From IMG/VR virus record IMGVR_UViG_3300016466_000630, positions 1 to 39,938 of that record: a DNA stretch of 39,938 bases. One strand, given 5' to 3'. Below are positions 5,737 through 38,392 of this stretch, piece after piece. Numbering within the stretch: position 1 is the stretch's first letter; every line of letters starts with the position of its first letter. The position numbers were made by a program, and so were the translations under genes. This DNA is from a virus. Taxonomy: Duplodnaviria > Caudoviricetes. The notes under the pieces are model-generated. The model made no database searches. It saw only the letters and a list, made by a program, of their open reading frames with translations, and was not told the origin of the DNA.

Positions 5737-5766
5737 CCCTCCTATTTTATCTATTTTTTACCCCTA

Positions 5767-6217
5767 TTATGCACAAGATTTAATTATGCACAATAGGTTG
5801 TGCATAAGTTTGTGCATAATGCAACCCACGCTACATAAGGCTTTGAGGCATTATGCACAAATGCACAAGTTTTTCTAATAAATAAAAAATATTATATATT
5901 TATTTATATATAAGAAATAAGAAACTTGTGCATAATTAAAAACTTTCCTAGGAAAAATAAATCCTGTGCAGAATAAAAATATACCCTATAGAGGCTTGTG
6001 CATTTGTTCATTTGTTCATAATGGCTTCAAACCCTTTACTGGCAAGGGTTACATTATGCACAACATTTTTAGAATAAAGTGTTCATAATGAAAACGTGTG
6101 CATAATGCCTAGGGGGTTATGTTAGCGACACAAATGTCGCCAACATATAACAGCAAGGTAAATCGTGTTGAAGATACCCAAAATCAGCTGGGGTTTTGTA
6201 ATACCGATTATGCACAA
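5767..6217. repeat. Putative replication origin: TTATGCACAA iterons in both orientations around an AT-rich core
   Basis: TTATGCACAA at 5767, 5784, 5851, 6054, 6208; TTGTGCATAA at 5798, 5810, 5926; variants at 5861, 5964, 5995, 6079, 6096; AT-rich 5870-5925; adjacent to the primase-helicase gene. Confidence 0.8.
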
Positions 6218-7053: not shown

Positions 7054-7410
7054 TTAATCAACTAAGCCTTGAGCGTTAAACATGAGACTAAAAAGTTTGA
7101 TTTTAGCTTCAAGGTCTGCAACACGCTGTTCAATGTCGGCGATATTCGTGTCGCTAACATGTTCTGCTTCAGCCTGTGCTAGCTCGGCCTCGGTGATGAA
7201 GAGGTCGGCATAGTCGGGGTTGATATTTTTGATGGTGTAGGGTAAGTGACGGTAATTAAGTATGTCGTCCCTATGCAGGGAACAGTAATTTCTTTCAACC
7301 ACGCAATCACTGCTCCCTATGTGAAACATCAAAAACGCCACAAACTTTTTGACTTCTTCAGGTGTTCTAATCACGTAACCGTTTTCAGGGCGTAAAAGTT
7401 TTTGCATCAT
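7054..7410 (-). CDS. Hypothetical protein, paralogue of 10345..10890
   Basis: Shares MMQKLLRPE.G..I.TPEEV and NPD.A.LFITEAELAQA with 10345..10890. Confidence 0.8.
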   Translation of the reverse strand: MMQKLLRPENGYVIRTPEEVKKFVAFLMFHIGSSDCVVERNYCSLHRDDILNYRHLPYTIKNINPDYADLFITEAELAQAEAEHVSDTNIADIEQRVADLEAKIKLFSLMFNAQGLVD

Positions 7411-7726: not shown

Positions 7727-8080
7727 CTAAAAAGGGATAGCTTCATCTCCTCCGTACCACTCTCCAGCGTCATGTGCAACGCTTTGTGGCTCGTGGGTGG
7801 AGGCTTTGCGTTCAATGTGTACAGTCGCCTGCTGGGTGGGGTATAGCGTTACTTGAGGCTTTCCGTTGTACTCGGTGGCCTTTAGGTATCCTTCCGACAC
7901 TGTCACTTTATCCCAGGCATTTACAGGCTCGTCAAACCACATTTGAAGCCATAAACCCCCTTCGTATTTTCCAGTCGCTTTGTTTTTCGTACTTCCCACG
8001 CAAAAACTAGCAACATACTTTTGATTTACTTGGCGAACCGTTTTAATCGGTTCGGCATCTAGCACAATCGTTAAACTCAT
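7727..8080 (-). CDS. ssb: Single-stranded DNA-binding protein
   Basis: OB-fold-like pattern (DKVTV.EGYL...EYNGK), acidic tail ending DEAIPF, directly after the ERF gene. Confidence 0.8.
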   Translation of the reverse strand: MSLTIVLDAEPIKTVRQVNQKYVASFCVGSTKNKATGKYEGGLWLQMWFDEPVNAWDKVTVSEGYLKATEYNGKPQVTLYPTQQATVHIERKASTHEPQSVAHDAGEWYGGDEAIPF

Positions 8081-8811
8081 TGTATTTTTCCTGCTCCTTT
8101 CAGCATCAGTAACGCTGTTTCACATTCGCTATCGCTTGCATCGTCAATCGGGCAAGGTAACGCATACGCTTGTAACTCGGGGGGTAAGGCTTTTAATTGC
8201 TCCCTGGCGGTTTTAGCAACCGCTAAAGGCATTTGTAGCCGTGGCAACAGGGCTTTAAACCCTTGCTCGTCTAAACCCTCTAAACTGCCTAGGTGGGCTT
8301 TTAGCTGGTCTTTAGAGATGCCTTCTTTTAGTTTAGCGTTCACCCATGCCATCACGACCTTTTTGTGTGTTTCTTGCGGTGGTGGCGGTGCTGGCGGTGG
8401 TAGTGGTGGGGCTTCTACCTGTTTCGCTTTAGGGTTTTTAGGAAGTGTAGAAGCACCGTTCCCATCGTCATCATCATCGGCGAACAGATTGAACGCCGTG
8501 GCGATAGCATAACGGCGAGCGTATGTTAAACCGCTTCCCATATCTTGAGCAGTCCCTTTTCCATTAATCACTGGCACGGCTCCAAAGTCGATAACGCCTC
8601 CTTCTTCATCATGCACACTTACATGCACACTTAACGGCTCTTGGTGAATAGAAACAACCAACGCTAGCCCGTTGGCATTCAACGTAGGAATCACACAATC
8701 AAGCACCGCACCTAAATCAGCGTATTTGTTACGCAGGTGTGGGTTGACGGCGTTTTTAACCACAGGCGGGAACTCACGCTGGGCTTTTAGTAACTTGGCA
8801 TAAATGCTCAT
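8077..8811 (-). CDS. erf: ERF-family single-strand annealing recombinase
   Basis: KNAVNPHLRNKYADL and QDMGSGLTYARRYAIATAFNL..DDDDG signature. Confidence 0.92.
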   Translation of the reverse strand: MSIYAKLLKAQREFPPVVKNAVNPHLRNKYADLGAVLDCVIPTLNANGLALVVSIHQEPLSVHVSVHDEEGGVIDFGAVPVINGKGTAQDMGSGLTYARRYAIATAFNLFADDDDDGNGASTLPKNPKAKQVEAPPLPPPAPPPPQETHKKVVMAWVNAKLKEGISKDQLKAHLGSLEGLDEQGFKALLPRLQMPLAVAKTAREQLKALPPELQAYALPCPIDDASDSECETALLMLKGAGKIQ

Positions 8812-10344: not shown

Positions 10345-10890
10345 TCACGCTTTTGAACTTCTGATTGCTCTAATGTACTCAACTTCACCTTCTTCAAGGT
10401 ACGTTGGCTCATGCTGGCCTAGCTCGTCAATGTTAAGCTCGGCTTGATTGACTAGGTCGTTTGCTAGCTCAAGCGTTTCGTTAAGGTCATCGATAAGGTA
10501 CTCAACGGCTTGTGCAAAGGCTTCTGCATTGCCTTTAAAGGCTTCCCATCCACTAAGTGAATGAAGCTTGTTAGAAAGCTCCTGTAGGGCTTCTAGCTTG
10601 CTTGTGATAGGGTTGAAGGTTTTCGCCTGTGCTAGCTCGGCTTCAGTTATAAAGAGGTGGGCAAAGTCGGGGTTGACACTTTTGAAAGTCCACGGTAGGA
10701 ATCGAGATTTTTCCATGTCGAGTTCCGATATACAAAGATTCCTCTCATCAACTGCATAGTTAGGATTCCATGTATGGAACACGAGGCACGCTTTGTACTT
10801 CTCAACCTCTTCAGGTGTGTTAATCTGTTGCCCATCTTCGGGGCGTAAGAGTTTCTGCATCATAGTGGGGCTTTTATCAAACATAATCAT
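10345..10890 (-). CDS. Hypothetical protein with C-terminal coiled coil, paralogue of 7054..7410
   Basis: N-terminal ~80 aa clearly homologous to 7054..7410. Confidence 0.8.
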   Translation of the reverse strand: MIMFDKSPTMMQKLLRPEDGQQINTPEEVEKYKACLVFHTWNPNYAVDERNLCISELDMEKSRFLPWTFKSVNPDFAHLFITEAELAQAKTFNPITSKLEALQELSNKLHSLSGWEAFKGNAEAFAQAVEYLIDDLNETLELANDLVNQAELNIDELGQHEPTYLEEGEVEYIRAIRSSKA

Positions 10891-11038
10891 CCTCGCTTTC
10901 TTTAAATTGAATAGGTAGGGCTTTTAACTGCTTCCAAAAGTTGAGGCATTCAAACCACAACACAGGGGCAATTAACAGTGTAACAATGCCGATAAACCAA
11001 TCGGCAAAAAGAGACACAGTGGGGTCTAGTTGATACAT
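10877..11038 (-). CDS. Small single-TM protein (53 aa, not in the ORF track)
   Basis: MYQLDPTVSLFADWFIGIVTLLIAPVLWFECLNFWKQLKALPIQFKESEDDYV; purine-rich leader; overlaps the next gene's start. Confidence 0.55.
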   Translation of the reverse strand: MYQLDPTVSLFADWFIGIVTLLIAPVLWFECLNFWKQLKALPIQFKESEDDYV

Positions 11039-11058
11039 GGTCTTTTTCTTTCTCTTTT

Positions 11059-11116
11059 AACTGATGCCATACGCTGGCACCTAGCGGGTGTGCCTACCAT
11101 CGCTAGCAGGCACAAC
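11059..11116 (-). ncRNA. Two-hairpin structured RNA motif, copy A
   Basis: GTGCCTGCT-agcgat-GGTAGGCAC / ACCCGCTAG / GTGCCA-gcgta-TGGCAT / CAGTT. Confidence 0.75.
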
Positions 11117-11122
11117 AAACAA

Positions 11123-11362
11123 TTAGTTAAAAGCCCGCTCGATGCGAGCAATTAACTCACCCCGCTTGGAGGCAACCAGCAACTTTGTACCGTTCATTTG
11201 TGGGTGGGACACCGATTTGTGCTTACCCACAAAAGTTAAAATGGCTACATAGCCTTTCTCACCATTGCTTATTTGTACGCCTAACTTTTGACCATCGCTT
11301 AATGTGGCTGTAGCAAAACCTTGACCACGTGTGCGACCCCAATGAAACTTTAAAGCTATCAT
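11123..11362 (-). CDS. Hypothetical early protein
   Basis: RBS AGGAG; flanked by motif copies A and B. Confidence 0.7.
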   Translation of the reverse strand: MIALKFHWGRTRGQGFATATLSDGQKLGVQISNGEKGYVAILTFVGKHKSVSHPQMNGTKLLVASKRGELIARIERAFN

Positions 11363-11393
11363 TTAAACATCTCCTATCAATCAACCAATTAAA

Positions 11394-11452
11394 AACTGAT
11401 GCGTTACGCACGCACCTAGCGGGTGTGCCTACCCACTTGGAGCAGGCACAAC
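11394..11452 (-). ncRNA. Two-hairpin structured RNA motif, copy B
   Basis: GTGCCTGCTC-caagt-GGGTAGGCAC / ACCCGCTAG / GTGCGT-gcgta-ACGCAT / CAGTT. Confidence 0.75.
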
Positions 11453-11457
11453 GGGGG

Positions 11458-11646
11458 TTAATCCCAATGCCAATAATCGTTCTCAGTGTCGTGAATTACC
11501 TCCTCACGAGGCTTGAAATAGCCTTTCACGTCAATACGTCTACCCTTGTACATCATGCAAGTGGAATTAGAATAGGCTACAGGGACACGTTCACCGCAAA
11601 CAACCCTGTCGGTGAAGTTTTTTAGCCGAGTTTTTATTTTATTCAT
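11458..11646 (-). CDS. Hypothetical early protein (62 aa, MNKIKTRL...)
   Basis: RBS AGGAG before ATG 11646. Confidence 0.65.
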   Translation of the reverse strand: MNKIKTRLKNFTDRVVCGERVPVAYSNSTCMMYKGRRIDVKGYFKPREEVIHDTENDYWHWD

Positions 11647-11677
11647 AATTAAATCTCCTAAATTAAATAAATAAACA

Positions 11678-11732
11678 AACTGGTGTGATACGGTCACACC
11701 CACCGAATCAACCAACCATTGCTAGCTAGCTG
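11678..11732 (-). ncRNA. Two-hairpin structured RNA motif, diverged copy C
   Basis: CAGCTAGCTA-gcaa-TGGTTGGTTG / ATTCGGTGG / GTGTGA-ccgta-TCACAC / CAGTT. Confidence 0.65.
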
Positions 11733-11891
11733 AATAATGCGTTAAGGCCTGCAAACCCGCTACACCGTGTCGTGGTGGAGGTGAAACGCTTGATTGTCAA
11801 TGAACCAGTTAGAAGCATCAATCAAGAGGGAACTGCTGAGCGGTAACTGCGCCGTCTGTCGTCTGTCTCGTTTGCTTAACTTCATGATGTA

Positions 11892-11934
11892 ATAATACAA
11901 CAATACAACAAAGAATGCAACTAAATTACAACAA
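11892..11934 (-). promoter_or_regulatory. Leftward early sigma70 promoter with overlapping TACAACAA repeats
   Basis: TTGCAT (11920-11915)-17 bp-TATTAT (11897-11892); TACAACAA (+ strand) at 11896, 11904, 11927. Confidence 0.75.
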
Positions 11935-11987
11935 ACGTTACAAAACTTCATACAAATAGATGATAAGCAATCTTAATGTTTTATTCC

Positions 11988-12018
11988 TTGACAACACCTG
12001 TAGAAGATATGCTATAAT
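11988..12018 (+). promoter_or_regulatory. Rightward promoter upstream of the methyltransferase
   Basis: TTGACA-19 bp-TATAAT with extended -10 TGC. Confidence 0.7.
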
Positions 12019-12266
12019 GAGACGTACCGAACGCATACGCCGTTTGAAGCGACCGCAAGGGTAGCGTAAACAAACGGTGGCGTGGAACGTAGTAGGGATA
12101 TTATATTCACTAAAAGCTATTACAGATGTAGCTATTTTATGGTTAATATTTAAGGTTTTTTGAGCTACTAGTTACTTTGTGGTTCAAAAATAACACTCAA
12201 TAGAACGCACACACTTTGCTGACGCATGGTGTGCTATTTTGCTTTGAAAGGATAAGGGGGAACTAG

Positions 12267-13457
12267 ATGACGAGCTATCAACTGATTAACGGCAACAGCT
12301 TAGAGGTGCTTAAAACACTACCTGATAACAGCGTGGATGCGATTGTAACCGACCCCCCCTATGGGTTAAGCCAACACAGCCAAGGCGATATTGTCAACGC
12401 CTTAACAGCTTGGCTAGCTGGTGAAGAATACACCCACGGCAAAGGCGGATTCATGGGTAAAGAGTGGGATTCGTTTGTGCCAAGCCCGATGTTATTCAAA
12501 GAATGTTTGCGTGTGTTGAAGCCAGGGGGACACATGCTTTGCTTTGCAGGGGCGAGAACGCAGGACTTAATGGGGATTGCTATTCGCCTAGCTGGGTTTG
12601 AATTAAGAGATAGTTGCTTGTTTTTGTATGGTTCAGGATTCCCCAAGGGGCAGAATATAGCCAAGGGTATAGAAAAGCATTTTGGAAAAGAGCCTATAAT
12701 TGTAGGAGAACGTGAAGACTTTGCGAGACGCAGAGCAAAAAACAACTTTAAGCAATTTTATGCAATCAATCCAAGTGAAAAAGCCATAAACTCCCAAGCC
12801 TTTCAGGAAAAAATAGGTGCTATTTATGAGTATTCCACCCCCGAAGCCAAGCAATGGGAAGGGTGGAACACCAACCTCAAGCCAGCCTATGAACCAATCC
12901 TCATGGCACGCAAGCCGTTAACTGGCACGGTGGTTGAGAACGTGCTAAAGCACGGTGTGGGGGGCTTGAATATAGACGGTTGTAAGGTTGAAAGTACAGA
13001 TGTTGTAGGTGGTCGTGGGTGTAAAAAAAATACTAAAGGTGCAGTATGCTTTTCCGAATACAAAGGTGAAGGATACGAGCCACGGCGACACACACAAGGA
13101 CGCTATCCCGCCAACGTCATCCTAGACGGTAGTGAGGAAGTGGAGGCGTTGTTTCCAAATGATACGCAACGGTTCTTCTATTGTGCTAAAGCAAGCAAGC
13201 GTGATAAAGATGAGGGGCTGGAAGGCATGAACCCTCATCCAACGGTTAAAAACACAGCCCTCATGCGTCATTTAGTCCGTTTGGTTACACCTAAAGGTGG
13301 TGTTGTGCTAGACCCCTTTATGGGGAGCGGTAGCACTGGCAAGGCGTGCATGTACGAGGGGATGCAGTTTATCGGCGTGGAGCTAAACCCTGACTATGTT
13401 GAGATTGCCAAAGCACGGATTGAGTTTGCAAAAGGGGATACCGATGCCACCGAGTGA
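12267..13457 (+). CDS. DNA N4-cytosine/N6-adenine methyltransferase (beta class), orphan
   Basis: VTDPPY catalytic motif near the N-terminus; HPTVK and VLDPFMGSGSTG SAM-binding motif near the C-terminus. Confidence 0.93.
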   Translation: MTSYQLINGNSLEVLKTLPDNSVDAIVTDPPYGLSQHSQGDIVNALTAWLAGEEYTHGKGGFMGKEWDSFVPSPMLFKECLRVLKPGGHMLCFAGARTQDLMGIAIRLAGFELRDSCLFLYGSGFPKGQNIAKGIEKHFGKEPIIVGEREDFARRRAKNNFKQFYAINPSEKAINSQAFQEKIGAIYEYSTPEAKQWEGWNTNLKPAYEPILMARKPLTGTVVENVLKHGVGGLNIDGCKVESTDVVGGRGCKKNTKGAVCFSEYKGEGYEPRRHTQGRYPANVILDGSEEVEALFPNDTQRFFYCAKASKRDKDEGLEGMNPHPTVKNTALMRHLVRLVTPKGGVVLDPFMGSGSTGKACMYEGMQFIGVELNPDYVEIAKARIEFAKGDTDATE

Positions 13458-16466: not shown

Positions 16467-18043
16467 AATAGCAGTTTGGTTACCTCATCACGCTTGGCTT
16501 GTGGCATGTCTGATAATAATTTATAGGCGGTTTCATCATTTCCTAGTTGCAAATGGCGGTCAATTGTTTTCGCAATACGTACTGCATCGTTCTTTGCGTA
16601 AAGCTCCTGCCGTAGCATCTCTCGGGGGTCATAGCTGGCAAGCTCGGCTTCTAGCTCCTGTACACGCTGTAAGCTCTTGTTATAGGCTTCTGTAAGGCTT
16701 GCTATCTCTTTATCCCCACCTAGGGCTTGCAACGTGGCCTCTAGTGTGTCCTGCTTGGCCTTTAGGTCGGCTTCAAGCTGGGCTACTTTCTTTTGCAACG
16801 TGGCTTTGTTAGCCCAGTTACCCTCCTTGGCTTTTTTCAGTTGCTCTCCTTGCTTGATTAGTTTTTCTTTCAGATCGGTAATTTCAAGCTGGAGGTTGAC
16901 GTTTTGTTTCTCCACCTCGGGTAAGTCGCTAGCAATAGCGTTTAAAGCGTCCTGTAGTTTTTTGGCCTTGTCGCTGGCTTGCATGTTTTGAGAGAGGGTG
17001 TTTATCTTGTTTTGTGCCGATTTTAGCTTGGCTTGCAAATCTTCAACCTTGGCTTCATTGCCTTTTAGAAGCGTGATTTGTTGCTCAAGCCCTGCTACTA
17101 CCCCTTGTGTGTCTTTTAACGCTTGCTGGGCTTCCTGCACTTGCTGGCGTAGCTTTTCGGCGTTCTCCTTGCCTTTGCTTTCAGCACTGGCTAACTGCTG
17201 TTGCAAGCGGTTGAGTTTGGCTTCTTGCTCTTTCTTCGTTGCGGTTAATGCCTGCACTTGCTTTATCAGCCCTTGTGCCTTGTTGAGGTTGAGGAGCTTT
17301 TGCTTCGCACGCAACGCCGTGGCCTCTTTGCCAAGTTGCACGTCCTTACCCATGGCTTTAGCCAAGTCGAGAACGTCATGCTGAGCTTGGGCTAGCATGA
17401 AAAACATGAGGGGGTCACTATCGGCGGTGATATTGTCTTCCACCGTGGCGGTGGCCTCTTCGTTGGCATCTTTAGCAATGGTGGCTAGGGTATCAGGGTT
17501 AAGGCCGTCTAGGGCGTCTTCTACGGCTTTATTTGTCTCGTTAAAGCTGTTGATGTCACGCTGGGCTTTGATAAGCATGTACTCGGGCAACTGGCGATAC
17601 AACGTACTCATCACTTGCAAGGCTCGGCCTGCTTGCGTGCCTGTCTTCACAAAGGCTTCTAGCCCCTGTGCAAAAGCTTCTTGATTGCCTGCGTGGGCTA
17701 AGGCGTGCATAGCTCCTATCAGTTGCATCTGTTGCGTGTGGTTGGCTTTCATAGCATCGGGTAGGCTGTTGTAGAGGTCAATGATTTCAGTGGGGTTCAT
17801 TGCCCCTGTCATCATGTTTTGCAGTGTTTCAGAGGAGTTAGCTAGCACAATCTCGGTGGTGTTCTGCCGTGGTCGTAAAAAGCCGATACGTTCGGCCTCC
17901 AGTAACTCGGGGGTGATTTCTCCAGCGTCAATCGCATTAGCAAGAATGGCTAACTCCTGCCCTAGCTTGTTGTTTGGGTCTATCTTCCCCCTAAGCGTGT
18001 TAAGTTGCTGGGCTTGGTGCTGTACACATTCAATGTTAGCCAC
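16460..18043 (-). CDS. Coiled-coil internal virion/ejection protein
   Basis: 527 aa, GTG start overlapping the upstream stop; long Ala/Gln/Lys heptad region. Confidence 0.7.
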   Translation of the reverse strand: MANIECVQHQAQQLNTLRGKIDPNNKLGQELAILANAIDAGEITPELLEAERIGFLRPRQNTTEIVLANSSETLQNMMTGAMNPTEIIDLYNSLPDAMKANHTQQMQLIGAMHALAHAGNQEAFAQGLEAFVKTGTQAGRALQVMSTLYRQLPEYMLIKAQRDINSFNETNKAVEDALDGLNPDTLATIAKDANEEATATVEDNITADSDPLMFFMLAQAQHDVLDLAKAMGKDVQLGKEATALRAKQKLLNLNKAQGLIKQVQALTATKKEQEAKLNRLQQQLASAESKGKENAEKLRQQVQEAQQALKDTQGVVAGLEQQITLLKGNEAKVEDLQAKLKSAQNKINTLSQNMQASDKAKKLQDALNAIASDLPEVEKQNVNLQLEITDLKEKLIKQGEQLKKAKEGNWANKATLQKKVAQLEADLKAKQDTLEATLQALGGDKEIASLTEAYNKSLQRVQELEAELASYDPREMLRQELYAKNDAVRIAKTIDRHLQLGNDETAYKLLSDMPQAKRDEVTKLLLC

Positions 18044-21000
18044 AGTTTACCATCCGTTCTATTTGTTGAAATTGTGCGTCTGATAATTTCTCTTTTAGTT
18101 TGAGTATATCAGTTTTACTCATGCCTGCCAACTGGTCGGTTAAAGCGAACACTTCGGCATCTTCTAAAAGCTCTAGCTTGCTTCGGTCGGGTAAGATGCT
18201 CATTTGCTCAGGGTTTCCTTCCTGTTTGGCAAGTTGGTAGTAGTGTTTTAAAAGGTTGGTTAACTGTTTTGGCTTGTTGGCGTACTCCACTATTAGGTCA
18301 AGCACCTTGTTCGCTTCGGGGCTTAAACCATCCCCTAACAGCGATAACTGACGGCGGTAATCCTTAACCGTAATGCCTTTTTCTTTAAGTTCTAGTAGCT
18401 TTTCTACGGCCATACCGATATCGCTTGAGATGTCAAAGTCTTTGTACACCTTGGCTTCTTGTTGGGCTTTGTATTCGGCCACGGTTGGGCTTATTGCGAA
18501 CATCGCTTTCCCTAGGTTGACGCTTTCTTCTTCCGCATTGTCTAGCAACGTTGTTAGGTTGTTAGCGTTCGGGAATGCTTTAACCAACAGGGCGTTTTGA
18601 ATGCGTTTTAAGCCTGTAGCGGTAAGCTGGGATTTCTTATTAACCATGGTTGCGTGTTCGTTGTTAGGCACAACTTCAAGGGTGAATGCTTGCACAAACT
18701 CGCCGTTAAGCCTTCCTTTTTCATCGGGTTGAAGCAAGTTCAGGGTTTCAACAGAGACTTTATCCGCATCGTTTTTAGCCTGCTCTAAGATGCTAAGGCT
18801 GGCAATCGTGGACTCGTTGGCTTTTTTGGTAAACGCTACACGGTCGGTGTCTGTTAACCGTTCACGTACCAAGACAGGCTGTTTCATCCCCTTGATAACT
18901 TCGGGGTCAAGGCCAAACTCGCTAGCGTTGGCTTCAAGGTAGGCTTTGTATTCTTTACCCTTGTCTTTAAATAGCTTATAGGCTTGTCGGATAGCAAGGG
19001 TTCGTCCGTTGCCACTTTCAACAACGTTATCCTTGCCAACAATGGGGCTTCCATCTGTAATGCTTTTCGAGTCTGTTAGCTTTTCAGGAGTCAATGCTTG
19101 GGCGATGTCGTTGATCTGCTCACGAGACGTTGCACGCTCACGGTCACGAGGCTGTAACTCTTGTGGGTAGGCTTTGTTCGGCGTTAGGTCGTCATTGTTC
19201 GAGGTAACTAACTGGCTGGCCTCTACGGCTTTGTAACGCACTTCATAGGCGTTACCGTCATTGTCATACACTTTTGCCGTTTTCGCTTTATCTTTAGGCT
19301 TTCCACCAAGCATCACATCATAGATTTCACGCATGGCTGGGGATAGCTCACGCTCCAGTGGACTACCCTCAATAGCTTTGTAGATGTTAGTTAGCCACGT
19401 TTTGAACTTCTTAAACACGGCTTTTAACCCCTTGGTGGGTGCGTTGCCTTCGGCTAGGTAGGCTTCAAACCCTTCAGCAAACGCTTCAGAGGTGGCTCGG
19501 TTCCACTTCTTTTGGCCTGCGTATTGCAACACGATTTTACGCTCAATGGGGTTTAGCACCGATTCATAAGCGTGGGCTAGCTCGTGCAACGGTGTAGACA
19601 CGTTCGGGTTGGTTAAGGCGTAAATGATGAGTTGTTGGTCTTTTTGCTGGAACGCTCCTAGAGGCTCGGATAAGGCTTGTTGAAAGCGAATATCGGGATT
19701 GTTGGGGTCAAAAGTGCCTTTGTTTCCTATGGCGGATTTGATTTGTGTAGGCTCAAAAACTACATATTGTTGAGCTTGGTATTTTGTTTCCGTTATAGGG
19801 TCTGCTTTTTTTTCTTTAATAATTAGTCCGTCATAACCTTTTTGTTTAAATTGCTCAATAATTTTTTGCATAGGGAAAGAAACTGCTAACTCATCAAGTT
19901 CTCTTTCTGTTATTTTTTTTGGCTTTTTGATAGATAAAAAGACTTCTTTAAGCGTACTCCCATACTTACTAGCTTCATTCTTGTCGCCAGTAAACCAATA
20001 TCCAATCATAGAACGGTCTGCCATTCTATTTATTTCAGGTTTTTTAAATTCATTAAAATCAGTGTTAGTCCCATGATAAACAACCAAAGGTTTTTTGTTT
20101 TCATCTGTAATTTTAGATTTGCCAAACCATTTTTTAAACTCGGGTGTGTTTATTTGATTGCTTTCTCCTTGCTCCTGCTTTAGCTCCTTCCCTTGCAACT
20201 GCTCGGGCGTGGCTTTGGTGAACTCAAACCGTTGTGCTTGTTCCTGTGGCGTGATAGCGTTACGCTCGGCCATAGTGCGGTTGGTTGCTTCATACACCTG
20301 TGCTACTGCATCGGCTTGTTCATCATTCAAGCCGAACGTTTGTTGTATCGCCCTTTTAAAGCCTTGCGTTGTTTCGTCCTTGGGTCTTTGTACTTGCGGA
20401 GCATTAAGGCGTGCTGGTGGCGTTTTTGGCTCGGGATTCGGGGCTATTTGTTGCCCCTGTAATGCCTCTGTTTGTTGAGGGGGTAGTGTAGAGGTGGGGG
20501 CAATTTGTGGCAATTCGGCGGTTTGTTGATTTTGGGGTATTTGCTGTTGCGAAAGTTGCAACAACTGCGAGAGTATCGCTTGTTGTTGCTCCATAGGCAA
20601 GGCTTGCAACTGTTGAATCAGTTGCTGTTGAGGGTCGACTGTTTGGGGTAGCTGTGGTACTTCTTGTGTTTGCTGTTGAGACACGTCACCAATGACTGGT
20701 GGAATAGAAGTGCTAGGGTTGCCTTGTGGTACGGTAACACTTTGTGGTTCAAGCAGAGTCGCTTGTGTGGGTTGCAAAGCGGTTGCAATGCTTTCCATGG
20801 CGTTAGGGATAGAAGCTAACGCATTGAGTGCCGTGCTAGGTGCTTGCCCCTGTGGTAAGGTAGGCGTGGCTGTTTCAATCGGGGCTTCTTGTAATGCTGT
20901 AACACCCCCTTGATAAATGCGTGTCTTGGGGTCAACCAAGGCGTTCCCCATCTCTTGCCCTTCTTGAAACTGTAGTTGCCCCCCATGCGTGGCATTATAC

Positions 21001-22064
21001 ATGCTACTGGCTTGATTTACGGCCATGGTGGCTATGTCATCGCCGTACCGTTGGCGTAGCTCATTGTAGATAGCATTCGATTCGGGCGAATCCCCTAGTT
21101 GTGCAAGTTGCTCTACGGCCGTTCCTAGAATAGCCGTTTCTTGTTCAGGGGTGTAGTTTTCGGGTGTGCGGATGTTACGGCCAAAACGCCCCATAAGTGC
21201 CTTTGCAAAAGCCATCCCTGCACCTACACCAACCCCTCCAGCAAAGGATTCTCCTGTGCCTTCAAGGGCATTGTCGTTATAGCGGTTGGTGATGTTACCA
21301 GCAATTTGGCTTAATGCTTCCTGTCCACCTTCCGCAAGGATTTCTTGAGGTACAGAAAGATTTTTAAACGGCTTCAAATGCTGAAATGGCAAGGCATCAA
21401 ACGTGCCTTGAGCTATAGCAGAATTAGGGTCGATATTCGGTTGTTTTCCTTGATATACGGCTTGCTTTTGAGCTTGAATATTTTGAAAGGCAGAATCTCC
21501 CCCACTTGCAAGGCTACTTGCTGTAATAGCTCCACCTGGACCCCCTACAAGTTGTCCTAGCGCCCCTGCTGGGAAGCTAACGCCTGCTCCTCGTAAGGCA
21601 CTACCTAAAGCTCCAGCCCAAAAGTTAGCAGTGGCATCGCCCCCTAGTTGCTGTTGGGCGGTGGGGTTTACACCTAGCACCCCTGTTTTTAAAGCGGATA
21701 AAGCGTTTGCTACAGGGTTTTGCGTTTTAGGTTGCGTGTTGAGTTGATAGGTTTCAGGGCTGATAAGTGGAACCCCTTTTTGCTCTGCACGCTTTGCTAA
21801 TTCTGTACGCCCATAATTGTAATAAAGGGCTTCTTGCTGTTTATAAAATTCAGCAATTTGAGCTTTGGTTGGAGGTAATTTGTATTGAGATTGAGCTTGA
21901 TAGTTCTTAACAAACTTGGAAATGTCTTTAAGTGCATACGTTTGAGCTAGTTTTTTAACACGATTTTCAACGTAGTTTGTGGTGGCGTAGCGTTGATGTA
22001 AAGGGTCTGGAAAGAGTTCTTTTCCCCCTTGTACCACTTGGTCTAAATTGAACTCTTGAGCCAT
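18036..22064 (-). CDS. Large polyvalent ejection protein with ART-PolyVal-like, zincin-like and ddrB/ParB-like domains
   Basis: FKKWFGKSK..PLVVYHGT...GYDG...VVFEPTQIKSAIGN.GTFD; LHELAHA...EAFAEGFE; YPQELQPRDR...GSPIV...VESGNGRTLAI; Gly/Ala-rich membrane-type N-terminus. Confidence 0.8.
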   Translation of the reverse strand: MAQEFNLDQVVQGGKELFPDPLHQRYATTNYVENRVKKLAQTYALKDISKFVKNYQAQSQYKLPPTKAQIAEFYKQQEALYYNYGRTELAKRAEQKGVPLISPETYQLNTQPKTQNPVANALSALKTGVLGVNPTAQQQLGGDATANFWAGALGSALRGAGVSFPAGALGQLVGGPGGAITASSLASGGDSAFQNIQAQKQAVYQGKQPNIDPNSAIAQGTFDALPFQHLKPFKNLSVPQEILAEGGQEALSQIAGNITNRYNDNALEGTGESFAGGVGVGAGMAFAKALMGRFGRNIRTPENYTPEQETAILGTAVEQLAQLGDSPESNAIYNELRQRYGDDIATMAVNQASSMYNATHGGQLQFQEGQEMGNALVDPKTRIYQGGVTALQEAPIETATPTLPQGQAPSTALNALASIPNAMESIATALQPTQATLLEPQSVTVPQGNPSTSIPPVIGDVSQQQTQEVPQLPQTVDPQQQLIQQLQALPMEQQQAILSQLLQLSQQQIPQNQQTAELPQIAPTSTLPPQQTEALQGQQIAPNPEPKTPPARLNAPQVQRPKDETTQGFKRAIQQTFGLNDEQADAVAQVYEATNRTMAERNAITPQEQAQRFEFTKATPEQLQGKELKQEQGESNQINTPEFKKWFGKSKITDENKKPLVVYHGTNTDFNEFKKPEINRMADRSMIGYWFTGDKNEASKYGSTLKEVFLSIKKPKKITERELDELAVSFPMQKIIEQFKQKGYDGLIIKEKKADPITETKYQAQQYVVFEPTQIKSAIGNKGTFDPNNPDIRFQQALSEPLGAFQQKDQQLIIYALTNPNVSTPLHELAHAYESVLNPIERKIVLQYAGQKKWNRATSEAFAEGFEAYLAEGNAPTKGLKAVFKKFKTWLTNIYKAIEGSPLERELSPAMREIYDVMLGGKPKDKAKTAKVYDNDGNAYEVRYKAVEASQLVTSNNDDLTPNKAYPQELQPRDRERATSREQINDIAQALTPEKLTDSKSITDGSPIVGKDNVVESGNGRTLAIRQAYKLFKDKGKEYKAYLEANASEFGLDPEVIKGMKQPVLVRERLTDTDRVAFTKKANESTIASLSILEQAKNDADKVSVETLNLLQPDEKGRLNGEFVQAFTLEVVPNNEHATMVNKKSQLTATGLKRIQNALLVKAFPNANNLTTLLDNAEEESVNLGKAMFAISPTVAEYKAQQEAKVYKDFDISSDIGMAVEKLLELKEKGITVKDYRRQLSLLGDGLSPEANKVLDLIVEYANKPKQLTNLLKHYYQLAKQEGNPEQMSILPDRSKLELLEDAEVFALTDQLAGMSKTDILKLKEKLSDAQFQQIERMVNCG

Positions 22065-23127: not shown

Positions 23128-23577
23128 TTATTGTCCTCCGATTGTAGGAATGCGTCTAGCTAAGGCATTGCCAGCAAGGCCACCAAGCAACATAGCATCA
23201 GGATTGCCACGAGTGGCTAACCCCATCGCTCCAGCGGTTAATCCTGCGGTTAATAGAGGGTGTCGCTTCATCCATTGCTTGCCCTTGCCTAGCTTTTGCC
23301 CTAACACTTGGCTCCAGTCGTATTCAGGGGTAACGGCTAGCGGTTGCATGGTGTTGCTTGGTTGCATCAAAGGTTGCATCTCGTAGTTCCCTTGATGAAG
23401 CGGTTGAGTTGGGGTCTGTGGCATTGCAAGCGTTGGTAACTGTGGATAGGCATTATGCACCATTTGCTCGTTGTTGGTTCCGCCTTTTTGCTTCATTGCT
23501 CCTGCAACAGAACCTGCGGTTCCTGCAATTTTTGCCCCTTTGATTAATGTTGGTAGAATAGCCGCCCATGCAATCAT
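23128..23577 (-). CDS. Probable ejection (pilot-like) protein
   Basis: Gly/Ala-rich hydrophobic ends; position in the operon. Confidence 0.55.
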   Translation of the reverse strand: MIAWAAILPTLIKGAKIAGTAGSVAGAMKQKGGTNNEQMVHNAYPQLPTLAMPQTPTQPLHQGNYEMQPLMQPSNTMQPLAVTPEYDWSQVLGQKLGKGKQWMKRHPLLTAGLTAGAMGLATRGNPDAMLLGGLAGNALARRIPTIGGQ

Positions 23578-23590
23578 GTGTGTGACTCCT

Positions 23591-24409
23591 TTATTTTTTC
23601 ATTCCTGCAAACGCATTTACCGCACTGCTAAGTGCCTGCCCCCAGTCGATACCTTTCGGTTGCTCGATTGGGGTAGCCCATCCTGCTCGACGCATAGCGT
23701 CTTGATACCCTGGGCTAGAACGCATTGTTTGTAAGCCTTGGGCGTGGCCTTGGCTTGCCATAGCGATGCGTTGGGCTACGTTAGCCATATCTTGCGTGAT
23801 AGGCACGTTGTACGTCTGTAAGGCTTGCAAGATTGGGTTCATCTCGTTTTGTACTACCTGCCCACGGTTGAGAATCGCATCACGGCTGATGCGTGCAAGG
23901 GCTGGGGTTAGCACATCTTGGTTCATTTTAGTAAATTGCTGTGCAAAGTTACTGTTATTAAACGAGCCAAAACGGTTGCCTATTTGGTTTTGGAAGTTTT
24001 GCACCATGGGGTTCCATTGCCCCATGAAGTCTTCGGTTGCTTGGTCTCTATACGCCTGTTCTGCACGGTCTCCTGCGGTGGCTGGGTCAAACTCGTTCAA
24101 GGCTTCTAAGTTGCTGAGGTAGCCTTGATTGGCTAGCTCTAAAATGCGTTTTTCGTTATCACTTCGGCGTGCATTGATACGAAACGCACCGTTTTCAAAG
24201 CCTGCATCGGCCAAGGCTTCACCGTCTACGCCTGCACCAAAATTATAGTTATTTTCCATGCCTAACACTTGGTTTTGTGCTTCGGCTCTAGCCCTAGCCG
24301 CTGCTGCTTTTTTACGTTTACGGCGTGCAAAAAAGGAACCAATAGGCCCCAGTGGGTTAGTGAGTATGTTGGTTGAGCGAGTATTATATGCCCATTTACT
24401 TTGAACCAT
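23591..24409 (-). CDS. Probable ejection (pilot-like) protein
   Basis: Gln/Asn/Ala-rich 272 aa directly after the tail nozzle gene. Confidence 0.6.
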   Translation of the reverse strand: MVQSKWAYNTRSTNILTNPLGPIGSFFARRKRKKAAAARARAEAQNQVLGMENNYNFGAGVDGEALADAGFENGAFRINARRSDNEKRILELANQGYLSNLEALNEFDPATAGDRAEQAYRDQATEDFMGQWNPMVQNFQNQIGNRFGSFNNSNFAQQFTKMNQDVLTPALARISRDAILNRGQVVQNEMNPILQALQTYNVPITQDMANVAQRIAMASQGHAQGLQTMRSSPGYQDAMRRAGWATPIEQPKGIDWGQALSSAVNAFAGMKK

Positions 24410-25944
24410 TATTTATTGTCTCCTTTGCTGACTTCAAAGCCAAGCGAGAGTAAGCGAAAATCCGTAATAGGCGTACTGCACACCAGTTCTACTTTAAGTG
24501 TTTTAAAACGAAATTGCAACGGAAACCGATGCTCTAGCGTACTTTGCGTGGAGTAGATGGTCGTGTCATAAATAGCTGTGCCATAGGTGCTATTTTGACT
24601 ATTGGCTGTAAAGTTACGGCTTTCGACAATCTCACTATTGTTATCCACATAGAAGTTTAGCGTAAAATCAGTAGAAGTCCCTGCTTGAAAGCGAAAAAAC
24701 AGATGATTGATTTTTTTAAAAGCGTATTTATCGCCAAAATCTAAATAGCCTGTTGCCATTTTTTTAATGAAAGGGGTTGCATCTTCAAGGCTAAACGTAG
24801 CTCCATCTCGGTAGATTTGCCCACTTGCTGGGTTGCTGGTGCGTCCGTCTGTAATGTACATTGAGCCATGGGCGTAACACGCCATTGAAAACGGTACGGT
24901 TTTTTTATATTCCCATGTAGCGTTATCAAAGTTAAAAATAAATTGACCTCGGTAGGTGGTTTCGTTGTCCATGCGAGGAGCAAAGACTAATTCGTTTCTA
25001 GCTGGGTTGGAGATGAGCAAGGCTTGAGACACGTTGGTGATGTTGCCGTAAGGGTTTGAGATATTTTGAAAGATAGGGCGAATGTTACGTGATAGTTCCG
25101 TGTCACGCTCCCATAGGATTTTACCAAACTCGTTGACGCTTAACGCATAAATACCACGGCTAGACACATACCACGAACCACGGTTTGCGTTGGCTGTTCC
25201 TAGGCGTGCCTGACACGATTGAGGGGCTTCTATTGGTGTAATCTGATAGTTATCAGGCTCGTCCCCTGTAAGGAGCTTCACGCCGTTGCTAGCACTGTGA
25301 AAGGCCGTCACTTCACCGTAGTTTTGCACGGCTCGAATATCGGTAAAGTCGCCAAATGCCCCTGATAAATTAAACGCATCGTTGGGATGTGTCCAGTTAT
25401 TGGGGTTGCCTAACGCACTGATATAAATGTTGTTTTTAACAGTCACAACAACACGCAAGCTATTGTGAATTGCAATGCGGTTCGGTTGGCCTATAGAGGC
25501 ATTGCTCCAGTCGGGGTGGGGCGTTGTCACTGATGCGTAAGTGGTAGGGGTGCAGGTAAAGGGTACATTGACCCCATTAACGCCTACGATAACGTTAGCG
25601 AATTGCTTAAACAAGCAAGGGGCGGTGATACCTGTGGCGACTGGGGTAGGCTCGGCTCCTCCGTTAATTGAAATGAAACGGATAGCTCCGCTAGCCTTTT
25701 GATACACAATCATGTTTTCGGATTCAGACGAATATTCCGCCATGGCAATAACGGGCGTAGTGTCTGATACCGTAGAAAGCAAGCTAAGAATCCCCTGGTG
25801 GCTTGTTAGCCCCCCTGATTGGTAAGAAGTGAGGTTTTCTAGGTAGGAAAACTCCGTGTTGGTTGTCCCTGTGTTAATCAAGGTATCCACTTGACGGATG
25901 TTTAAGCCCCCTGTAAGTTGGTTAAAATCAATCGTTTGCGTCAT
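24409..25944 (-). CDS. Tail nozzle / stabilisation protein (P22 gp10 / tubular protein B-like)
   Basis: N-terminal GGLN motif, beta-propeller-like sequence, C-terminal TGYLDFGD..FKKI motif; 511 aa. Confidence 0.75.
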   Translation of the reverse strand: MTQTIDFNQLTGGLNIRQVDTLINTGTTNTEFSYLENLTSYQSGGLTSHQGILSLLSTVSDTTPVIAMAEYSSESENMIVYQKASGAIRFISINGGAEPTPVATGITAPCLFKQFANVIVGVNGVNVPFTCTPTTYASVTTPHPDWSNASIGQPNRIAIHNSLRVVVTVKNNIYISALGNPNNWTHPNDAFNLSGAFGDFTDIRAVQNYGEVTAFHSASNGVKLLTGDEPDNYQITPIEAPQSCQARLGTANANRGSWYVSSRGIYALSVNEFGKILWERDTELSRNIRPIFQNISNPYGNITNVSQALLISNPARNELVFAPRMDNETTYRGQFIFNFDNATWEYKKTVPFSMACYAHGSMYITDGRTSNPASGQIYRDGATFSLEDATPFIKKMATGYLDFGDKYAFKKINHLFFRFQAGTSTDFTLNFYVDNNSEIVESRNFTANSQNSTYGTAIYDTTIYSTQSTLEHRFPLQFRFKTLKVELVCSTPITDFRLLSLGFEVSKGDNK

Positions 25945-26687
25945 TGGTAGATGGTTCCAAAAGGCCAGTTGCTGTGGCGTTCACGCTCCTGATAGTGCGG
26001 TACAATTTGCGTTACAGTATCACGGCCAGCAGGTTGCATAAAGGAAAGCAAGCCTTTCAACTCTTGATCGGCAAGCTGTAGCAATGAAACGTACTTTGCA
26101 TCACCAGCATTCATGGAGCGATAGGTTAAGGCCGATGCTTGCAAGATAACGTAACGCTTCCAGCGGTCGGGTAGCACCATGGTATCGGTGGCTTGCGTCA
26201 ATTCAGTAAGTTTGGTGTTGTTTGTGTTTTGGCCGATGTATTGCTGATAATAGCGAACAGTACAAACATAGGCTTTATTAGGCGTGTGAGATAGCACAAA
26301 CTGATTGCCTTCGATTGTGTAGTGTGTTGGCTCTCCACTGCCTAAATCAATTCCCCAGGTGTCTAGGGTTGTGTAGTCAATGTACCCTAGTGGTTTATCT
26401 GTACCTTGTAGGTAATAAGCATTAGACGCTACGCTTGCAAGTTCAAAGCACGGTAAGTTAATTTCAGCTTCGGTGTACCGTTGCTTCCCTTGGGTGATAT
26501 TGAACGTGGCTTTCGTCATCATAAAAAATAGCCGATATGACGTGATTAAATGCGTCAACGTGGCGTTAATGTTGGCTAAGGCTTGTGTTTGCTCGGGGTT
26601 GGGATTGCTTGGAAAAGAGGAGGGTGCTTGTAATGCACCCTCCCTAGCGACACCCATAAGCAGTTCGTTAAGGGTGACGGCCATCAT
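25941..26687 (-). CDS. Head-tail adaptor (tubular protein A-like)
   Basis: T...I.QG..RY, GEPTHY, TP...Y...VRYY, LPDRW pattern; precedes the nozzle gene. Confidence 0.7.
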   Translation of the reverse strand: MMAVTLNELLMGVAREGALQAPSSFPSNPNPEQTQALANINATLTHLITSYRLFFMMTKATFNITQGKQRYTEAEINLPCFELASVASNAYYLQGTDKPLGYIDYTTLDTWGIDLGSGEPTHYTIEGNQFVLSHTPNKAYVCTVRYYQQYIGQNTNNTKLTELTQATDTMVLPDRWKRYVILQASALTYRSMNAGDAKYVSLLQLADQELKGLLSFMQPAGRDTVTQIVPHYQERERHSNWPFGTIYQ

Positions 26688-27445
26688 TAGTTACCTACCA
26701 CAATGTTACCAGTAAATACGGCACTAGGGCTTGTTCCACCCATGACGTACTTAATGCGGAAATATGTGCCGTCAATGCCTGTAGTTTCAGGGTAGCCACT
26801 GCCGATAGTAGTTAGGCCAACACCAACACCGTTACTCAAGCTAACAGAACCACTAGACACAAATGAACCGCCTGTGGTTCCATGAGGGACATCTACCCAG
26901 TTGTTTGAGTAAAACGCTAGGGCTTGAGCGGTAAAGGCAACACCAGTCGTGCCCTCTACACCACGCACAACGGTTAGGTTTTTAAAGCCTGTTCCACCGC
27001 TATCGTTAGCTCCTACCGCCGTTACACGGACGGTTTCACGAGTAACGCTTTGGTCGTCATTGTTACTGCCATTGGCGTTGCCATATTCTACCAAGTAAAG
27101 CAATTCGCCTACAGTGGGGTTAGTTGCTGTGTTAGGCACAACAATCGTGGTAGCACTGTTGTTAATCGCCCCGATGGTACTAGAGAGGTTAAAAGGGAAA
27201 GCATTACGTTGTAACGTGGCTACAACGGTAGGGCTTGTACCCGAAACGCTAGAGGCGGTGGTGCTTAATTGTAACGACTTTGCCCGACCGTTAGCATTCA
27301 TGCCAACAACAGCTTTAGGTAAAGAACGGATTTGACGTACCGTGTTAGCAGGCATTGTGATAATGCCGTCTTTGAGAAGTACTAAGCCCCCAAAAAGAGT
27401 ACCTGTAACAGCGGGCGTAACTACTGGGATGGTTAAAAAAGACAT
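26687..27445 (-). CDS. Probable virion structural/decoration protein
   Basis: Thr/Gly/Val-rich beta protein with ETVRVTAV..LTVVRGVEGTT. Confidence 0.6.
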   Translation of the reverse strand: MSFLTIPVVTPAVTGTLFGGLVLLKDGIITMPANTVRQIRSLPKAVVGMNANGRAKSLQLSTTASSVSGTSPTVVATLQRNAFPFNLSSTIGAINNSATTIVVPNTATNPTVGELLYLVEYGNANGSNNDDQSVTRETVRVTAVGANDSGGTGFKNLTVVRGVEGTTGVAFTAQALAFYSNNWVDVPHGTTGGSFVSSGSVSLSNGVGVGLTTIGSGYPETTGIDGTYFRIKYVMGGTSPSAVFTGNIVVGN

Positions 27446-27447
27446 AG

Positions 27448-28044
27448 TTAGCGACTTTCTAAAAATCTAATAAAATAAGGATGTAAATTGGTTTTAACTA
27501 AATGAAATTGAAACTTTTTCTCGTTGCCTGTAACAACGTTTAAGTTCTTTTCATCATCATCAAAGAGTAAATGCCCAAGGTCTCCACCTTTAAAATAAAA
27601 GATATTTTTAGGTTCAAACAGAGGCATTTCTTTAAAAGTGTTTTGATTTTTATTGATGGCATCAACGTTAAAATTCGCTGGGGCAATGCTTGCAAAGTCA
27701 AACTGTTGCCAAAAAAGAACACTAGGTATCATGTGTTCTAAATTGATGTTTGCTTCACTAACCCATGTTTCAAACTGTTTTGCTAGCACTACAAGGCGTT
27801 GCTTGTCCGCTACTTCAAAAATTTGAAACCGTTTGGCTGGCAGTTTTAGCAGTTTACACAAATCTAAATACCCATACTCTGTACTTGCTTTTGCAACATG
27901 CTGGCGTTTGGCACTCACTGCTTTGCTAAATGCTTCATCAGATTCTACCCATTCGCTACCTGGGTTGCTTGATGCTTCATCAGCGTTTGCGGTTAACGTT
28001 AATTCATCTAAATCCAAACTGGGTGTTTTATGTCTCGCTAACAT
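27448..28044 (-). CDS. Hypothetical protein downstream of the capsid gene
   Basis: RBS AAGGAGG; 198 aa. Confidence 0.7.
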   Translation of the reverse strand: MLARHKTPSLDLDELTLTANADEASSNPGSEWVESDEAFSKAVSAKRQHVAKASTEYGYLDLCKLLKLPAKRFQIFEVADKQRLVVLAKQFETWVSEANINLEHMIPSVLFWQQFDFASIAPANFNVDAINKNQNTFKEMPLFEPKNIFYFKGGDLGHLLFDDDEKNLNVVTGNEKKFQFHLVKTNLHPYFIRFLESR

Positions 28045-28064
28045 AAATAAACCTCCTTACTTAA

Positions 28065-28970
28065 CTAGGAAAACGTAGCAGAAATACAGCCAAGTTTTGC
28101 GTCATACACTACGCCACCGCCGTAATGTGCTAAAGCTCGGGTTGCATCTGCAAAGGTGCTTTGTAAGCGGATTTTCTCTGTCTTTGGCTCCATAGCAGCA
28201 AAGAACTCATAACCACCTGTTACGGCCGCTGGGCATTGATATAAGCCATTGGCATTTTGGGTTAACGTGCTATCAAAGGTAACTTCTAGGCTTTCAAACA
28301 GTTTAATGGTAGGAGCGTACCCAGATACAGGTGTAGACAATTTATTGTCATCAACCATTTGAGGGGTTTGCTTGTTGTACATGTGTGCTTCAAGCAACGA
28401 CTGGGCTTCGAGAGGTAAAGCAATACGTAGGGTTTCGCCTGCTTTCAAGGCTAGACGGCTAGAAAACGTTTGCTTGAAGTCAATTAAGCCTTTGATAATG
28501 TTGTTTTCATCAAGTGCCATGTTGACGTTGTGACCTACAGCGATAGCAGACGCACAAATATCAGATACAATAAAACGGTTCATTGTATCAGCAAAACCTT
28601 CCGCCATACGCATTTGGTATTCGGCCAGTAAGTTAACAGAAAGCTCAACATCGTCCAAATCGTCTAACTGCACGGCAGAATATTTCGATTGGGTTAGGTA
28701 TAGCTTAACTGTGCCAGAGTTTGTGGGGTCATAAACAATACTTTGGCCACGAGTGTAGTCCTTAATAACAGGCGTACCTACTACGTTTACAACTACAGAG
28801 TCACCGCCTTGCTTTCCGCCAAATTTAGATTCAAACTTACGGCCAGCCAGTTGCATTGCCCCCCGCTGGTTTTCTAAGGCTTTTAAGACTTCTTGTACCA
28901 CCTGTTGATGGATAGCACTGTTGTTAGCTTGCAATCCGCTACTGCGGACGTGTCCAGTGTTATTAGGCAT
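28065..28970 (-). CDS. Major capsid protein
   Basis: GDSVVV, L.LTQSKYSAVQLDDLD..ELSVNLL, and FADATRALAHYGGGV patterns of podoviral HK97-fold capsids; follows the scaffold gene. Confidence 0.85.
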   Translation of the reverse strand: MPNNTGHVRSSGLQANNSAIHQQVVQEVLKALENQRGAMQLAGRKFESKFGGKQGGDSVVVNVVGTPVIKDYTRGQSIVYDPTNSGTVKLYLTQSKYSAVQLDDLDDVELSVNLLAEYQMRMAEGFADTMNRFIVSDICASAIAVGHNVNMALDENNIIKGLIDFKQTFSSRLALKAGETLRIALPLEAQSLLEAHMYNKQTPQMVDDNKLSTPVSGYAPTIKLFESLEVTFDSTLTQNANGLYQCPAAVTGGYEFFAAMEPKTEKIRLQSTFADATRALAHYGGGVVYDAKLGCISATFS

Positions 28971-28989
28971 GACGCACCTTTCTTTTTAG

Positions 28990-29820: not shown

Positions 29821-29942
29821 AAGGGTTTTCTCTTTCTATAGAAAGGCTATCTCTAGTGCGTTATTATCAGACACTAGGCAAATGCACACACTTGTGCTAC
29901 TATAAGTATAACAGGTTTTACAAAAAAGAAAAGGGGTAATTT

Positions 29943-36103: not shown

Positions 36104-36188
36104 TGGCCTTTAGAGGGATTTGAACCGACGACCTGTATCACCGCATTAAAGGGATTGATACTGCTCTACCAGGCTGAGCTACAAAGGT
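36104..36188 (-). tRNA. tRNA-like RNA with extended anticodon arm (non-canonical)
   Basis: CCTTTG/TAAAGG acceptor + CCA; D arm GCTC-AGCCTGGTA-GAGC; T loop TTCAAAT (stem 3 of 5 pairs); anticodon stem GTATC/GATAC encloses 17 nt. Confidence 0.7.
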
Positions 36189-38337: not shown

Positions 38338-38374
38338 AAAAACCCCCCTGCTTTTTAGCAGAGGGGCTTTTTTT
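38338..38374. terminator. Bidirectional terminator
   Basis: AAAAA-CCCCCCTGCT/AGCAGAGGGG-CTTTTTT between convergent genes. Confidence 0.75.
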
Positions 38375-38392
38375 AGTTACCCGCTTACATTC

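Follow-up and report, generated by a model that had tools for sequence, protein, structure and literature searches.

A repeated, covarying cis-RNA element with a predicted pseudoknot at the first gene junctions of a phage operon

Introduction

What does a short RNA fold do when a phage carries it, in nearly the same form, ahead of several consecutive genes? The question arises from a tailed virus (Duplodnaviria; Caudoviricetes) known from the IMG/VR record IMGVR_UViG_3300016466_000630, the whole of which, 39,938 bases classed as linear and 69% complete, was analyzed here and is referred to as the window. The record encodes a terminase, portal-type and capsid proteins, internal virion proteins, a primase, an Erf-like annealing protein, RusA, two methyltransferases, and endolysins. 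Sequencing runs in which the region occurs at a share of at least 0.2 are all metagenomes, from lakes, freshwater, or sediment, and contigs confirmed its presence in four of these runs. No RNA run turned up among those with the region, which has no bearing on whether it is expressed. A preliminary description of the sequence had noted three copies of a two-hairpin motif in the early genes. The present analysis finds a real, covarying, and uncatalogued cis-RNA with cassette exchange and a narrow known range. An RNA of 57 nt that covaries naturally and comes with three ready-made alleles offers a test bed for studying how phages express newly acquired early genes.

Three copies at the head of an operon

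The element is 56–57 nt long, and its three copies, all on the minus strand, occupy 11733–11678 (copy C), 11450–11394 (copy B), and 11114–11059 (copy A). Each precedes one of the three genes that open a long operon on the minus strand, which reaches to the Erf gene. A model built from the copies found no fourth one in the window, the next best place scoring 14.8 bits versus 76–86 bits for the copies themselves. The linker, the arms of hairpin 2, the (G/C)CGUA loop, and the CAGTT tail agree with the preliminary description, as does the start of copies A and B at 8 and 7 nt past the preceding stop codon; the helix lengths required correction, hairpin 1 having 11 bp, not 9–10 bp, and hairpin 2 having 7 bp. 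The features of the region are listed below in the direction of transcription.

11892..11920, minus strand: candidate sigma70-type promoter of the operon, read from the sequence; weak -35 (3/6), 17-nt spacer, -10 5/6
11708..11733, minus strand: hairpin 1 of copy C; 11 bp, GCAA tetraloop; variants of relatives at 11724 and 11728 turn U-G into C-G
11678..11707, minus strand: predicted pseudoknot of copy C; stem S1 pairs 11705-11703 with 11693-11691, stem S2 pairs 11700-11694 with 11688-11682; AGUU tail 11681-11678
11647..11677, minus strand: A/U-rich spacer and Shine-Dalgarno sequence of gene 1; 35 nt from S2 to the ATG, 86% A+U
11458..11646, minus strand: gene 1; 62 aa, no family; cluster of 4 near-identical members
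11424..11450, minus strand: hairpin 1 of copy B; 11 bp, 5-nt loop
11394..11423, minus strand: predicted pseudoknot of copy B; S1 pairs 11421-11419 with 11409-11407, S2 pairs 11416-11410 with 11404-11398; tail 11397-11394
11123..11393, minus strand: exchangeable slot; spacer, Shine-Dalgarno sequence, and gene 2 (11362-11123, 79 aa, no family)
11089..11114, minus strand: hairpin 1 of copy A; 11 bp, GCGA tetraloop
11059..11088, minus strand: predicted pseudoknot of copy A; S1 pairs 11086-11084 with 11074-11072, S2 pairs 11081-11075 with 11069-11063; tail 11062-11059
10877..11058, minus strand: A-rich spacer without a Shine-Dalgarno sequence, then gene 3 (11038-10877, 53 aa, hydrophobic, no family)
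8077..8811, minus strand: Erf-like single-strand annealing protein; PHROG 2324, E 2e-33; same operon as the copies

The copies had been said to punctuate the first early transcript. Their place before the first three genes of the operon stands, whereas "first early" is suggested by the gene content of the operon, and the candidate promoter at about 11920–11892 is weak in its -35 element and was missed by a consensus promoter scan. A 41-codon frame running from the predicted +1 (11885–11760, minus strand) was considered as a leader peptide and rejected, as it is broken by small deletions in run X1 and by one of 62 nt in run X6; the leader is variable over this stretch (11760–11885) and probably non-coding there. 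The copies had further been placed ahead of the ribosome-binding site of each gene, which is accurate for genes 1 and 2 but not for gene 3, where no Shine-Dalgarno sequence follows copy A: the predicted duplex reaches only -2.9 kcal/mol, compared with -7.3 and -7.4 kcal/mol for genes 1 and 2. From the end of the fold to the ATG, 35, 35, and 24 nt were counted for copies C, B, and A and 25 nt for the B copy of the metagenome contig L183, across spacers that are 68–86% A+U; the leader of gene 3 in X3 would give 21 nt, extending the range to 21–35 nt. No protein family was found for genes 1, 2, and 3 or for a 57-aa gene that L183 carries.

Several further signals surround the copies. Terminator-like scores were obtained for copies B and C and for a hairpin in the last codons of gene 2 (11149–11133, minus strand), which amino-acid changes in the relative P0008 would shorten. 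TTAAC lies 6–11 nt upstream of every copy (11126–11133; 11457–11461; 11741–11745). At copy A, the 8-nt stretch 11126–11133 is perfectly complementary to the tail region 11054–11061 and could close the whole element, and weaker versions of this complementarity accompany copies B and C. A boxA-like reading of TTAAC was discarded, with a loose fit at copy A and none at copy B.

Folding and covariation of the RNA strand

Folded with RNA parameters, the minus strand of the three copies gave z scores of -3.35, -2.78, and -3.49, versus -0.83, -0.76, and -0.92 for the plus strand. With DNA parameters, both strands behaved alike (-12.2/-11.1, -13.0/-12.8, and -8.6/-8.3 kcal/mol). Because the strands differ with RNA folding and fold alike with DNA parameters, the strand bias lies at the RNA level, as the preliminary description had proposed from its G-U pairs. 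The three copies are under selection as minus-strand RNA.

Covariation was assessed in an alignment of copies A, B, and C with the near-identical counterpart of copy B from L183. Each of the 20 pairs is formed in every sequence (80 of 80 cells), and 7 of them are changed on both sides, three of these changes falling in S2 and one in S1. None of 500 shuffles reached this level, and slid structures were 24–44% paired and had no two-sided changes, although both controls lean in favor of the structure because it was drawn from the copies themselves. Hairpin 1 consists of 11 pairs capped by GNRA loops in copies A and C and by a 5-nt loop in copy B. The hairpin 1 of copy C, earlier taken to be of unrelated sequence, aligns pair by pair with those of A and B, with three two-sided and two one-sided changes, and on this alignment is homologous to them.

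Since the copy C variants found in relatives preserve pairing, they provide independent support for the paired structure. Five such variants occur among the 40 differences, out of 144, that the check took in. Four fall where bases pair, and pairing survives in each: U-G becomes C-G twice, G-C becomes G-U once, and A-U becomes G-U once, those in S2 at 11683 and 11694 still pairing as G-U; the fifth is at an unpaired position. L183 has two changes at unpaired positions of copy C, one of them within the tail. The copy A variants in X6 and X7 are divergent, with 34–35 differences over 10923–11122.

A predicted pseudoknot in the second half

The preliminary description placed a 9-nt linker between two plain hairpins. 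The second half of the element is better read as a small pseudoknot. Three linker bases are complementary to the three that open the hairpin-2 loop, and we consider it probable that this 3-bp helix (S1) forms with hairpin 2 (S2) an H-type pseudoknot. In the predicted geometry, a 3-pair and a 7-pair stem are accompanied by two loops of 2 nt each. One pair of S1 is swapped on both sides, from C-G in copies A and B to G-C in copy C, and among 20 alternative helices of 3–4 bp common to the three copies, S1 is the sole one composed entirely of Watson-Crick pairs. A sequence-free descriptor, shaped with the geometry of this element in mind, matched only the three copies on both strands of the window, compared with 0.4 matches per shuffled 40-kb strand (5 shuffles). 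Against the pseudoknot, the two-sided change is a single one among the three copies, the other two pairs being an invariant self-complementary CG. In addition, ViennaRNA, which does not model pseudoknots, assigns the linker bases of S1 in copies A and B to a competing nested helix that lengthens hairpin 2 by 3 bp; this extension fails in copy C.

Gene exchange bounded by the copies

In close relatives, either other sequence stands in place of the gene between copies B and A or copy A is missing, with breakpoints at the ends of the motif. Single contigs of X3 and X7 run through copy C, gene 1, and copy B into 333 or 331 other letters and then into copy A. Their joints lie at 11394 or 11405 at one end and, at the opposite end, at 11122, immediately beyond the gene 2 stop codon; the joint at 11394 is that of run X3, and relatives diverge straight after the tail of copy B. 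An X1 contig appears to join 11441 to 11104 via 12 bases common to copies A and B. L183 is 99.4% identical to the window over 328 bases up to the tail of copy B and unrelated thereafter; it continues with another ribosome-binding site and its 57-aa gene, which overlaps gene 3 in a TAATG, and copy A is absent. A loose contig end of X3 shows another leader ahead of gene 3. The copies therefore bound an exchangeable gene slot, which bears out the earlier impression that the genes look like cassettes at a shuffling site; the genes between copies do vary among relatives, namely in X3, X7, and L183. Homologous recombination inside the repeats explains the breakpoints, and the Erf-like protein may be the agent that recombines the copies.

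This arrangement recalls the PeSLs of the T4-type phages RB49 and phi1, in which a sigma70 promoter is combined with a terminating stem-loop in about 50 places per genome (PMC2839356; PMC4122927). As far as those accounts describe them, PeSLs are likewise repeated intergenic motifs that lie between one gene's stop codon and the following ribosome-binding site, before small orphan genes, and at which exchange takes place. The present element differs in its three copies, its covarying hairpin with a predicted pseudoknot, and its lack of a constant U-run, and no promoter-like site was found inside any of the three copies.

Known range of the element

The preliminary description did not recognize the family and supposed an undescribed cis-RNA, and the database searches agree. 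Across the whole window, Rfam 15 returned no family at the gathering threshold except one tRNA, and over 10800–12300 at E values up to 10, it returned three sub-threshold chance matches outside the helices of the copies. Guanidine-II kissing loops, a hammerhead core, a CRISPR-repeat mimic, and an N4-type single-stranded DNA promoter hairpin were considered and dropped, with neither Rfam support nor a DNA strand preference. A literature search, covering few subscription papers, found no account of a repeated hairpin-pseudoknot before phage early genes. Five motif strings were absent from the searched supplementary tables of a catalogue of viral structured RNAs (PMC10690425), the alignments of which may bear on novelty.

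None of 169 pattern matches in viral contigs was real. The exact A/B core had 0 matches, the consensus pattern had 2 (neither paired), the A/B-type pattern had 100 without a single full 6-bp stem, and the hairpin-1-anchored pattern gave 0 real matches out of 30. Among 37 C-type matches, one (L225) has the full stem, but it was rejected because it lacks hairpin 1 and lies inside stop-free frames. L183 was the one real match out of 94 in metagenome contigs, and none of 5 in genome contigs was real, the model scores of these five being circular because the pattern itself had selected them. Two pattern matches unrelated to this motif, L184 (~260–360) and L200 (~1470–1570), one of them an Acidobacteriaceae bin, share a conserved stretch of ~95 nt that has no Rfam match. 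In 270 loci (612,738 bases), 11 places fit the pseudoknot, and hairpin 1 accompanies it only in L183. Searches with blastn against isolated phages gave only methyltransferase matches or one chance match, and plasmids gave chance matches only. The capsid and first primase alignment yielded no loci; two loci from a deeper alignment (L239 and L240) had no model match above 12.7 bits and no descriptor match. As far as these searches reach, and they may miss very close records, the sequence family is narrow, although all patterns assume the present consensus and diverged members would escape them. No copy was found in the nearest complete relative that the searches reached, the primase of which is 45% identical and the genes of which are ordered differently; the element is thus dispensable at the lineage scale.

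Proposed function and alternatives

Gene exchange accounts for the breakpoints and leaves the fold to be explained, and the anatomy of the element favors a role in translation initiation over antitermination or self-cleavage. We tentatively adopt a reading that we rate a little below an even chance: each copy would be an S1/30S standby site that lies clear of the ribosome footprint and also serves as an anchor for recombination. Each copy would act in cis in the mRNA through its 11-bp hairpin, predicted H-type pseudoknot, and A/U-rich single strand. The pseudoknot would recruit the 30S subunit through ribosomal protein S1, allowing the next small gene to be translated at once, while hairpin 1 may protect against nucleases. 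The repeated sequence would serve as the point of homologous recombination at which relatives swap whole genes. The reading is drawn from the placement of the fold, the A+U-rich spacer, gene 3 without a Shine-Dalgarno sequence, and precedents for S1. Lying 24–35 nt from the start codon, beyond the initiation footprint, the fold cannot hide the ribosome-binding site. Moreover, gene 3 lacks a Shine-Dalgarno sequence where copy A precedes it and lacks copy A in the coupled arrangement of L183. According to PMC7708055, H-type pseudoknots are ligands of ribosomal protein S1, and tisB depends on a 5' pseudoknot for its standby translation; S1 is also described as docking mRNAs with a weak Shine-Dalgarno sequence (PMC3858243). 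The layout resembles tisB in that an H-type pseudoknot, here predicted, stands upstream of a single-stranded region and a ribosome-binding site. The tisB mRNA, however, is described as having just one such site, located at a processed 5' end some 100 nt away from a ribosome-binding site that is sequestered (PMC7708055), whereas three internal copies are present here, 24–35 nt from the start codon and with a hairpin upstream, and the role of S1 is putative.

Several observations weigh against S1/30S standby. Elsewhere in the operon, no copy accompanies four uncoupled junctions with gaps of 16, 43, 61, and 108 nt, and a weak Shine-Dalgarno sequence occurs at two of these. Genes 1 and 2, which have good Shine-Dalgarno sequences, would not obviously need help, and hairpin 1 and the conserved (A/G)GUU tail are left unexplained. 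The reading also assumes an S1 resembling that of Escherichia coli; the best matches in the search for a host are 21–44% identical and spread over phyla. A bolder formulation, that the element is a portable ribosome-entry module that loads 30S via S1 at cassette joints whatever the quality of the Shine-Dalgarno sequence, gives any gene captured between copies immediate translation, and is one case of a convergent, undescribed class in phages, seems to us unlikely, though a serious possibility. Should ribosome recruitment prove independent of Shine-Dalgarno sequences, gene shuffling would be tied to translation in one small module. If true, S1-pseudoknot standby would be extended from type I toxin mRNAs to phages, with a useful expression part as a by-product; if the element only stabilizes RNA, it would be a new cis-element of modest importance from a single lineage of freshwater phages.

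RNase III sites punctuate the early transcript of T7. A host endonuclease might similarly cut in or before hairpin 1, after which the hairpin and the pseudoknot would guard the new 5' end and leave one stable mRNA per gene. We regard such processing as rather unlikely, with evidence on both sides. One copy lies at each of the first three junctions, 7–8 nt past the stop codon, and hairpin 1 is kept at 11 bp while the spacing to the start codon varies. However, 11 bp is at the short end for RNase III, hairpin 1 contains several G-U pairs, and processing does not explain why the pseudoknot always faces the start codon across an A/U-rich strand. A parallel for the stability is the T4 gene 32 mRNA, which has a leader pseudoknot and is described as unusually stable (PMC3014915). 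The same leader inspires another proposal, in which a phage or host protein binds the pseudoknot, spreads over the spacer, and shuts off the three genes together, much as T4 gp32 acts on its own leader. The succession of pseudoknot, A+U-rich unstructured strand, and ribosome-binding site is indeed that reported for T4, T2, and RB69 (PMC3014915), and the operon includes a 117-aa gene (7727–8080) that looks SSB-like from its acidic C-terminal tip and has no family match. Yet no copy precedes that gene, and the spacers vary in length and base make-up. The gene 32 operator is presented in the same source as a single autoregulatory site before the SSB gene, at about -67, whereas the element here is repeated before unrelated, exchangeable genes. 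A translational operator is improbable in our estimate.

Two adjacent stems near the start of an early phage operon also call to mind the put RNA of HK022, and a factor-independent antiterminator or attenuator of that type would also agree with the terminator-like hairpin that ends gene 2 and the terminator-like scores of copies B and C. This seems still less probable. As set out in the accessible part of PMC9378689, which mentions no pseudoknot, put is a V-shaped RNA of 73 nt with two long stems, a triplex in stem I, a bulged loop, and G35-A9 at the fork; the present element has 56–57 nt, helices of 11 and 7 bp, a probable pseudoknot, and three copies. A U-run is missing after copy A and after copy B of L183, and three copies within 700 nt are hard to square with a persistent modification of the polymerase. 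The compact fold, some conserved unpaired bases, and the position at gene junctions would also suit a small self-cleaving ribozyme of a new kind, whose cuts would leave each gene with its own mRNA. Such a ribozyme is very improbable, given that no Rfam ribozyme matched even at E values up to 10 and that few conserved unpaired bases are left once the pseudoknot is counted, one of them changing in L183. Least plausible of all is a purely DNA-level site, attC-like or a plain recombination repeat, with an incidental fold. Integron attC sites are long, imperfect single-stranded DNA hairpins with RYYYAAC/GTTRRRY ends, of which the GTT tail where exchanges stop and the upstream TTAAC are a faint echo. 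The G-U pairs, the strand bias seen only with RNA, two separate helices instead of one long hairpin, weak DNA folding, and a GTT followed by pyrimidines in copies B and C speak against it, as does the absence of a tyrosine integrase (no PF00589 match) from the record, itself 69% complete.

Other features of the record

Two minus-strand early genes of the record (7054–7410 and 10345–10890) are paralogous, with a 96-nt stretch at 75% identity, and the latter carries deletions in relatives. Upstream of the primase gene, 5766–6106 contains direct and inverted copies of a 10-bp word (ATTATGCACA), a candidate origin or operator array. The terminase and portal-type genes are on the strand opposite the capsid and virion genes (23128–33738), with divergence at about 29.9 kb. 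A CRISPR array at 37282–37407 (plus strand) was ruled out, its three 42-nt repeats being in-frame 14-codon repeats within a DNA methyltransferase gene. Additionally, a tandem repeat with a 12-nt period occupies a short minus-strand frame beside a DUF6948 gene (38358–38644), and a tRNA-Gly(CCC) gene lies at 36105–36188 (minus strand). Finally, 18036–22064 (minus strand) encodes a 1342-aa polyvalent protein with ART-PolyVal (E 2e-22) and ddrB-ParB (E 4e-38) domains, adjoining other large family-less genes of the virion region.
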